This document shows, in pieces, positions 38,113 through 39,357 of a stretch of DNA of 64,000 nucleotides (positions are counted from its first letter, which is position 1; the number at the start of each line of letters is the position of its first letter). The notes beneath the pieces are model-generated. The model was not told where the DNA came from. It ran no database searches and saw nothing but the letters and a program-made list of their open reading frames with translations. The DNA comes from Escherichia phage JacquesWildberger_Bas92. Location: sequence record PQ850610.1; one strand, written 5' to 3'. Both the position numbers and the translations under genes were made by a program.

Positions 38113-39357
38113 TTAGTTGTTTGTTTCTATGTCAAAAGAGAATCCACGACCCGCTTCATCGGCAAACCGAGCTGTATGGGTTTGAGGCTCTAATACTTCA
38201 GGGTTGTTAGCAATAAAGCGAGCGGCGAGATTATCTTCCACATCTTGACTAGAGGGCTGACGTGCACTAACGTTGAAGCCATTCGGTCGACCACGAGAAG
38301 GACTAGACATCCATCTTTCCATAGAATCACTTGTAACACCAAGAGCTTCTTCAAAAGATGTTCTACGGGTAGAGCTTAGATTTCGTGCTTCATGTGCCAC
38401 TCTTGCAGGGGTTACAAATAACCCTTCAATTGCATTATGTCGATTAGGTTCATCTTCCCGACCAAGGAGATCACCTCCTGCATTAGTTGTTAAGTTTGTC
38501 AACCCTTCAGACCAATACGCACGAATCTGGCTAGAGCCATAAATGCCTGACATTAACTGAATCTCTTCATAAGGTATATCAAAGAATCGACTCATGTCTC
38601 GGTTAACACAATACTGAGCACTTGTTGTATCCTCAATAAGAGCAACCTGACCCCGTTCGTTGACCAGATGACTAACCGGCTGAGGTGTGGGAAGGTGTCG
38701 AGTTTGGGCCATGTATTGATATGCAGCTGCTGGATAGGAAAATCTCAACACTTGCGAGTTAGGCCACTTCTTGTGAACATACCTGATTTCACGACTAGAA
38801 ACAACCACTGGACAAGGGGCGGTCATAGCCAAGTATCCATGAGGGGTCATGAATAAGTTATCAAGAGTCATCGCACCACGGCACATCATAGGAAAATTAT
38901 CCAATACCTCTTCAATAGAAGTAGGATAATTAAACATGAATTGGATACGAACACCATTCCACTGAAACTCAATAATATCAGTGAATGTTAATTGAGAACC
39001 CCCAGCATATGGCTCATCTGTAGCTTCAACAAGAAGAGATGAATACTCAATATCTTGTGATTCAAGCCATTCCTTCACATTACTTTCAATCTCCCGCCCA
39101 AGCATTTGCCACTGCTCGGTTGGGATAAAGGTGTTTCGAGTTCTTGGTGTTTGTCCTCTGACAATAAAGATATCGATGTCATGTGGAGCTGTGTTATTAA
39201 GAACAGCATCACGAATAGCCCCACCAGTAATGATAGGGCAAATACCATCTGGAATCAAGTTGTTGTTAATCAACTGTTCAATGAAGTGACGACCAACAGT
39301 GATATCAGGTTGTTGAGCAACCTTATCTTCAATTCGGTTAATCGGGATAACAATCAT
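38113..39357 (-). CDS. Pol-beta-superfamily nucleotidyltransferase (CCA-adding enzyme or poly(A) polymerase-like head)
   Basis: Motif GGAIRDAVLNNTAPHDIDIFI (GGxxRD...DxD); start moved to ATG 39357 directly after the exonuclease stop (TAAaATG). Confidence 0.5.
   Translation of the reverse strand: MIVIPINRIEDKVAQQPDITVGRHFIEQLINNNLIPDGICPIITGGAIRDAVLNNTAPHDIDIFIVRGQTPRTRNTFIPTEQWQMLGREIESNVKEWLESQDIEYSSLLVEATDEPYAGGSQLTFTDIIEFQWNGVRIQFMFNYPTSIEEVLDNFPMMCRGAMTLDNLFMTPHGYLAMTAPCPVVVSSREIRYVHKKWPNSQVLRFSYPAAAYQYMAQTRHLPTPQPVSHLVNERGQVALIEDTTSAQYCVNRDMSRFFDIPYEEIQLMSGIYGSSQIRAYWSEGLTNLTTNAGGDLLGREDEPNRHNAIEGLFVTPARVAHEARNLSSTRRTSFEEALGVTSDSMERWMSSPSRGRPNGFNVSARQPSSQDVEDNLAARFIANNPEVLEPQTHTARFADEAGRGFSFDIETNN

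Follow-up and report, generated by a model that had tools for sequence, protein, structure and literature searches.

A predicted nucleotidyltransferase with a class II head but without the tRNA-specific parts of CCA-adding enzymes, encoded in the replication module of Escherichia phage JacquesWildberger_Bas92

Does a phage protein that carries the head of a tRNA nucleotidyltransferase act on tRNA at all? The question is raised by a gene of Escherichia phage JacquesWildberger_Bas92 (PQ850610.1), of which a stretch of 64,000 nucleotides (the window) was analysed. The gene occupies positions 38113-39357 on the minus strand and encodes 414 amino acids (aa) followed by a TAA stop codon. An earlier note had recognised in its product the motif GGAIRD...HDIDIFI, characteristic of tRNA nucleotidyltransferases and poly(A) polymerases, and had considered repair of tRNA 3' ends, as a measure against host tRNA nucleases, to be a plausible role. 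Both the coordinates and the motif are correct, as judged from the open reading frame (ORF) and its translation, and the head is indeed of the class II (CCA-adding/poly(A) polymerase) type, with intact metal-binding residues. However, the protein does not appear to be a CCA-adding enzyme, and a role in tRNA repair is unlikely. The reading that we prefer, at a probability of about 0.4, is that of a putative active Pol-beta-fold nucleotidyltransferase that operates without a template during the replication phase and uses a nucleic-acid end other than tRNA as acceptor. The annotation of the protein and its fold was already known from database records and two papers (as nucleotidyltransferase or class II CCA-enzyme head). 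What the present analysis adds is that the protein lacks features that a tRNA CCA-adding enzyme should have, that the branch to which it belongs is restricted to phages and consistently linked to T7-type DNA polymerase genes and that it shows a weak but full-head likeness to Gad2, an anti-Gabija enzyme.

Residues G45, G46, R49, D50, D60, D62, F64, Y117, I128, Q139, P156, Y193 and K197 are invariant in an alignment of 26 family members with identities down to 20%. Motif A (39163-39225, minus strand, delimited from the alignment) consists of GGAIRD (aa 45-50; 39225-39208) and HDIDIFI (aa 59-65; 39183-39163), the latter containing the two metal-binding aspartates, D60 and D62. Since G45, G46, R49, D50, D60 and D62 are all invariant, the occurrence of GGAIRD...DxD is more than a matter of chance. 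The motif could be aligned with GGAVRD...PHDVD of the CCA-adding enzyme 6ibp, and it was via motif A that the family profile retrieved CCA-adding enzymes from the PDB (E = 0.004); searches with the whole protein sequence against PDB chains, NCBIfam and PADLOC returned nothing useful. A candidate third catalytic carboxylate, D127 (38977-38979, minus strand), is located in the strand FTDIIEFQW (residues 125-133 of the structural model). This position is occupied by D or E in all 26 sequences, and D127 may therefore be catalytic.

An AlphaFold model computed from the same alignment is confident for aa 1-285 (38503-39357, minus strand), with predicted local distance difference test (pLDDT) values mostly above 90. 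An N-terminal strand and helix, the Pol-beta/class II head and a short helical extension make up this region. The closest counterparts of the predicted fold are class II CCA/poly(A) enzymes, and Foldseek ranks them likewise. Top homology to antibiotic nucleotidyltransferases had been named in the earlier note as an outcome that would speak against its assignment; the structure search returned instead CCA-, CC- and A-adding enzymes, all of them enzymes of RNA 3' ends, as the closest matches. The assignment of the head to the tRNA nucleotidyltransferase/poly(A) polymerase type is therefore borne out by the structural matches as well as by the conservation of motif A. The remark that about 330 aa without obvious similarity follow the motif needs qualification, as this part is not one featureless block: the chain is folded up to residue ∼285, disordered between residues 290 and 375 and conserved again in a motif at residues 376-414.

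Is the protein then a genuine CCA-adding enzyme? Because hhalign comparisons with the single sequences of Escherichia coli Cca or PcnB were uninformative, a class II reference alignment was built from these two proteins and seven phage tRNA nucleotidyltransferases. Its invariant residues include R90, R91, D92, T94 and N96 of motif B (RRDxTxN) and, beyond it, D131, R134, R137, R140, F141, R176 and E180 of motifs D (DxxRxxRxxRF) and E (RxxxE). Motif B, RRDxTxNA, which is responsible for ribose recognition, was not found in the 26-sequence family alignment, where the region reads LDNFPMMCRG and only P156 is invariant. Neither were there invariants in that alignment equivalent to motif D, EDxxR, which serves as the amino-acid template for C and A, or to motif E. 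Where class II enzymes have motif D, the alignment reveals a family-specific motif, R-[DE]-x-x-Y-x-x-x-K-[WYF]-P (aa 189-199; 38761-38793, minus strand), which includes the invariant Y193 and K197 and coincides with a helix of the model (residues 188-197); hhalign against the class II reference gave no reliable alignment of this motif with EDxxR. The hhalign match between the family and the class II reference (83.6%, E = 8e-6) is restricted to 28 columns around motif A. Longer alignments forced by a low mact value or in global mode paired the sequences in structurally implausible ways and were discarded. No Pfam match to body and tail (tRNA elbow-binding) or RNA-binding domains was obtained past the head at E values up to 10; the fold ends near residue 285, and a disordered acidic stretch is found where the body and tail of class II enzymes would be. 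Thus, the window protein shares motif A and the head fold with class II tRNA nucleotidyltransferases and bacterial poly(A) polymerase I (PF01743 head; PDB 3aql, 1miv, 4wby, 3h37 and 1ou5), but differs from them in having no RRD, EDxxR, RxxxE or body/tail domains and in possessing a disordered acidic C-terminus.

The tRNA content of the window was also considered. The earlier note had invoked a tRNA-Arg and a tRNA 3' fragment: the former is present (tRNA-Arg(TCT), 54030-54104, minus strand) and its 3' CCA is encoded in the gene, but neither ARAGORN nor Rfam at gathering thresholds found a second tRNA-like element in the window. In 492 phage records, mostly from large, tRNA-rich phages, genuine class II CCA enzymes are easily recognised; they constitute a separate family, which the search of phage records did not find in this phage group.

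In order to place the protein among its relatives, 1.84 billion representative proteins were searched exhaustively with a hidden Markov model (HMM), which yielded 32 clusters, several of them fragments. Conservation within the family is confined to approximately the first 215 residues, and the tails that follow range from none to ∼270 residues. In the phage collection the family is present in 97 records, all of them Escherichia or Shigella phages of the same subfamily. When viral proteins were searched by structure, short proteins of T7-like phages labelled 'poly(A) polymerase head' came up (Foldseek E = 5e-8 to 7e-6, target TM ∼0.6), and the profile of PHROG 1614 matches aa 35-216 of the window protein (6.6e-8). 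Ten such head-only enzymes were gathered from several Autographiviridae subfamilies for profile comparison. The family matched them over 102 columns (93.8%, E = 1.8e-7), and they in turn matched the class II reference over 116 columns (96.4%, E = 1.4e-9). The profile comparisons thus place the window protein, as a large and divergent member, in a branch of the class II head superfamily that is confined to phages. The PHROG 1614 enzymes, such as Aeromonas phage phiAS7 gp3, Ahp1 gp19 and Proteus phage PM16 gp16, are its closest relatives by profile, PHROG HMM and predicted structure, and have in common with it the GGxxRD...DxD head and the location in a T7-type replication module beside a DNA polymerase or exonuclease gene. 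Unlike the window protein, they are only 170-215 aa long, have neither the helical extension nor the disordered tail, keep an FDCNxNQ version of motif B, carry an invariant Asp where the window family has the invariant Q139 and are linked to class II enzymes far more strongly. A literature search for the function of the small T7-like nucleotidyltransferases found none.

In nine of the ten Autographiviridae phages examined, the gene for the small relative adjoins the DNA polymerase gene or is one gene away from it, the usual order being ligase, nucleotidyltransferase, polymerase; for the tenth, Pectobacterium phage PP1, the retrieved flank was too short to include the polymerase gene. In the window, the nucleotidyltransferase gene is preceded, with a gap of one base, by the gene for a separate 3'-5' exonuclease subunit of a split family A (T7-type) DNA polymerase (39359-39913, minus strand; PF01612, 3.8e-9), whereas the polymerase-domain gene is found 6 kb downstream, in the company of the genes for thioredoxin, ThyX and other proteins of the replication phase. 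Taken together, the two settings make linkage to the T7-type polymerase the most consistent feature of the branch. Nine bases past the nucleotidyltransferase stop codon lies a dCTP deaminase gene (37570-38103, minus strand; PF22769, 3.6e-34) in conserved synteny, so that both neighbours had been named correctly before. The tightly packed run is headed by a DnaB-type primase-helicase gene (39907-41697, minus strand; PF03796 DnaB_C, 9.9e-11), which overlaps the exonuclease gene by seven bases. Four diverged phage contigs of 76-88 kb have the genes in the same order (primase-helicase, exonuclease, nucleotidyltransferase, dCTP deaminase), and the Gordonclarkvirinae isolates of the BASEL collection are fully syntenic (PMC11990801). 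A scan of positions 36500-42500 for promoters and terminators gave no signal above chance. The exonuclease gene and the polymerase-domain gene (30358-32202) are separated by ∼7 kb, and the nucleotidyltransferase gene is situated between these two halves together with genes of nucleotide metabolism.

The start of the gene at ATG 39357 is one base past the TAA of the exonuclease gene (39361-39359), and its own stop codon is TAA 38115-38113. A mechanical list of ORFs offers a longer version beginning with GTG at 39414; this was rejected, as it falls inside the exonuclease gene and disagrees with the starts of the homologues and of Escherichia phage AidaStucki (Bas93). All 26 diverged homologues (identity down to 20%) start at ATG with M-I-x-I-P, and the same start and product are annotated in Bas93 (Bas93_0060, 'nucleotidyltransferase'), so the reassignment to 39357 made in the earlier note is correct. 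The phage is a Kuravirus-like podophage of E. coli: at the DNA level, the window is 96% identical to Bas93, and identities of 84-95% were found with about 70 Kuravirus-type podophages. The genome paper of SU10 lists an orthologue, one peptide of which was detected (PMC4281155).

The ratio of nonsynonymous to synonymous substitution rates (dN/dS) of the nucleotidyltransferase gene against close relatives is 0.19-0.34, which indicates a real coding gene under selection and rules out strong positive selection within Kuravirus. The ratio is 0.11 for the catalytic domain and 0.33-0.44 for the tail, compared with 0.01-0.16 for the neighbouring genes, and the nucleotidyltransferase gene has the highest dN of the module. 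Judged from these substitution patterns, the gene is selected and working, with constraint looser than that on the replisome proteins. A KBNP1711-like contig is 84-90% identical in DNA to the window up to 39358 and again from 38115 onwards, the exact limits of the ORF, and the enclosed protein is only 33% identical to that of the window. Between genera, identity of the nucleotidyltransferase is 29-40%, that of neighbouring genes 56-96%. As far as sequence comparison can tell, the gene is swapped between genera as a cassette. The dCTP deaminase gene appears to have been exchanged in the same manner, since in one related contig (IMG/VR UViG_3300045988_017452, locus L003, 7333-7860) its product is 58% identical to the counterpart while the flanking genes are 95-100% identical.

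The tail of the protein falls into two parts. An acidic, disordered linker (aa 290-375; 38233-38490, minus strand), with pLDDT below 50, is rich in insertions and deletions even among close homologues. It is followed by a C-terminal module (aa 376-414; 38116-38232, minus strand), ending in RFADEAGRGFSFDIETNN, which is near-invariant across Kuravirus homologues despite the variable linker and is modelled, for aa 376-412, as a low-confidence helix and hairpin. The C-terminal 189 residues as a whole (aa 226-414) have an isoelectric point (pI) of 4.85 and are rich in S, E, R and A. The extreme C-terminus, GFSFDIETNN (38116-38145), resembles the Exo I strand VFAFDIESN of the exonuclease (39868-39894), and a related sequence, GFATFDFET, is found within the tail of a homologue of 38% identity (P0045). 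Judging by the letters, the likeness of GFSFDIETNN to VFAFDIESN could be due to chance, could represent a docking mimic or could be the remnant of a rearrangement. The primase-helicase also possesses an acidic C-terminal tail (39907-39990), ending in ...NQADGASPW, and is reminiscent of the acidic tails with an aromatic tip by which proteins of the T7 replisome dock onto the polymerase.

What, then, might the protein do? The preferred reading departs from what was observed, namely the gene and its fold, active-site residues that are conserved, tRNA-specific parts that are lost, the pattern of selection and the gene linkage. The protein would be a divergent class II head with a shortened helical extension and then a tail that is long, disordered and acidic and closes with a conserved short motif. 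Made together with the replication proteins, it would join a nucleotide from a nucleoside triphosphate, with no template, to the free 3'-hydroxyl of a nucleic-acid end other than tRNA; addition to a 3'-hydroxyl is proposed because this chemistry is common to every characterised class II enzyme. By means of the disordered tail the enzyme may be flexibly tethered to a partner protein. The likeliest purpose would be to alter or protect the ends of phage nucleic acids, or to weaken the action of a host nuclease or defence, while replication proceeds.

Several points weigh against this reading. The activity of the branch members and their acceptor are predictions, as are the function of the tail and the purpose. 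The Pfam match to PF01743 (PolyA_pol; aa 43-122, profile positions 3-80 of 126) scores 19 bits against a gathering threshold of 23 (E = 0.0018), and although 15 of the 26 relatives match this head too, each independently, all do so below threshold (best E = 2.5e-4). Linkage to replication genes would fit anti-host genes of the same transcription class as well. Finally, an aromatic residue (W, F or Y) is present at the tip of only 9 of the 24 full-length nucleotidyltransferase tails, which leaves the tether idea weak and excludes a universal aromatic docking tip across the family.

The comparison with Gad2 bears directly on the purpose. Gad2, a predicted nucleotidyltransferase of 400 residues from Bacillus phage SPbetaL7, is needed to overcome the Gabija defence (bioRxiv 10.1101/2023.05.01.538930); a review from 2026 lists its mechanism as unknown (PMC12904381). 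Precomputed Pfam matches to PF26128 (Gad2) were found in 30 of 45 close homologues of the window protein, the match being labelled 'Gad2 (weak)' in the one homologue looked up. A Gad2 family alignment of 25 sequences was assembled starting from the SPbetaL7 protein (WIT28108.1). Its hhalign match to the window family is weak (63%, E = 7e-5) and reaches no further than query residue 175, but across its 112 columns it takes in the entire head, from the N-terminal helix and GGA..DxDxF, through the IQxM strand, which follows the catalytic hairpin and has an invariant Gln in both families, to FP-MMCRGA against FDFTVCMGAF. Gad2 against the class II reference gave 3.7% and E = 0.011 over 142 columns. 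The two proteins are thus alike in length (∼400 aa), in a related motif B region and in their occurrence, which for the window family is confined to phage records and phage-like contigs and for Gad2 homologues is almost always in phages and prophages. They differ in that Gad2 has GGxITS in place of GGxxRD and has a conserved, folded C-terminal half (for example the invariant Y294-K295 region) as well as invariant HN.Q and R.QKY residues, to which nothing in the window protein corresponds. On the basis of the head alignment, a remote relationship between the two families is plausible.

This likeness raises the possibility that the nucleotidyltransferase activity serves, as a counterpart of that of Gad2, to disarm a host defence such as Gabija. 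The idea overlaps with the preferred reading, and we hold it to be possible, though unlikely. It draws on the Pfam matches and the full-head alignment just described, on Gad2 being a proven anti-Gabija gene and on the resistance of these phages to many defences (PMC11990801); replacement of exactly one ORF by cassette exchange and the highest dN of the module would also suit a gene engaged in an arms race. On the other side, the similarity stays within the head and bypasses the RD of GGxxRD, the dN/dS is well under 1, and the gene is fixed and syntenic in the replication module across the subfamily (PMC11990801), whereas Gad2 is located in a variable anti-defence locus (bioRxiv 10.1101/2023.05.01.538930). 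Less likely again is a broader proposal, namely that podophages of the Autographiviridae and Gordonclarkvirinae deploy with their DNA polymerase a template-independent nucleotidyltransferase, tail-tethered in the kuravirus form, which would extend the 3' ends of DNA or primers against RecBCD, Gabija-like systems and some restriction enzymes, Gad2 being a distant relative that performs the same trick.

Other uses of the head appear more doubtful still. It is improbable that the enzyme adds tails to transcripts of host or phage, or to primers, in the manner of a poly(A) polymerase and so changes their stability, given that the ribose-reading motif B is not conserved and that the protein has no recognisable RNA-binding domain; the C-terminus of poly(A) polymerase I is basic and binds RNA, in contrast to the acidic tail found here. 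We give lower credence to participation in DNA modification, or in a nucleotide pathway, together with the adjacent dCTP deaminase. We know of no DNA hypermodification pathway with a class II-type nucleotidyltransferase, which counts against the idea, the small T7-like relatives do not adjoin a dCTP deaminase gene and deoxyuridine-containing DNA is unlikely because the phage encodes ThyX. The suggestion comes from the authors of the BASEL collection, who reported strong resistance to restriction-modification with no known modification and pointed to this pair of genes (PMC11990801), whose adjacency is indeed conserved. Many restriction sites are strongly avoided instead: CCWGG occurs 4 times in the window against 96 expected and GATC 129 times against 297, and twelve six-base palindromes, including the PstI, KpnI, NcoI and SacI sites, are absent. 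However, sites for EcoRV (29) and EcoP1 (87) are not depleted, so avoidance alone leaves the resistance unexplained and was rejected as a full explanation, a point in favour of modification. Least probable of all is repair of tRNA 3' ends, by complete or partial CCA addition, against host tRNA nucleases. The class II head and its best matches, the CCA-, CC- and A-adding enzymes, would agree with it. It is made unlikely by the missing motifs B, D and E and body/tail domains, by the CCA encoded in the only tRNA detected in the window, by the distinctness of genuine phage CCA enzymes, by the linkage to polymerase genes and by a divergence between genera, far exceeding that of the neighbouring genes, which is unlike that of an enzyme with an invariant substrate. 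The role proposed in the earlier note is accordingly not supported.

Several further features of the module and its surroundings were recorded. Within the replication module there is also a gene for a Dps/ferritin-like protein (36402-36980, minus strand; PF00210, 2.6e-7) with the signature HWNV..G..F..H..F.E, conserved among related phages. A gene at 34850-35206 (minus strand) specifies a stand-alone Ia (NMN-binding) domain of NAD-dependent DNA ligase, 118 residues long (PF22745, 2.5e-35), with neither adenylation nor OB domains; its annotation in Bas93 is simply 'DNA ligase'. Just upstream of the replication genes, at 41917-44036 and beyond, are genes for a RimK-like ATP-grasp enzyme and a gamma-glutamyl cyclotransferase, and the counterpart of this cluster in Bas93 continues with an amidoligase and a GlmS-like amidotransferase. 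The modules of relatives, though not that of the window, contain homing endonuclease genes (L018, 5862-6371; Bas93 locus L001, 16632-17132). These are of the HNH type or, inside the polymerase gene, of the endonuclease VII type, and their insertion sites differ between relatives.

If the protein does modify nucleic-acid ends or disarm a defence, it could explain how these E. coli phages, which are used therapeutically, resist the barriers raised by their hosts. Should the extension of 3' ends prove to be the correct reading, it would provide a mechanism for Gad2 as well as for the resistance that these phages show to host defences. Bas93 and Bas94 can be grown on E. coli K-12; end modification or defence disarming, if true, would therefore make them a tractable model for a widespread and uncharacterised phage enzyme.

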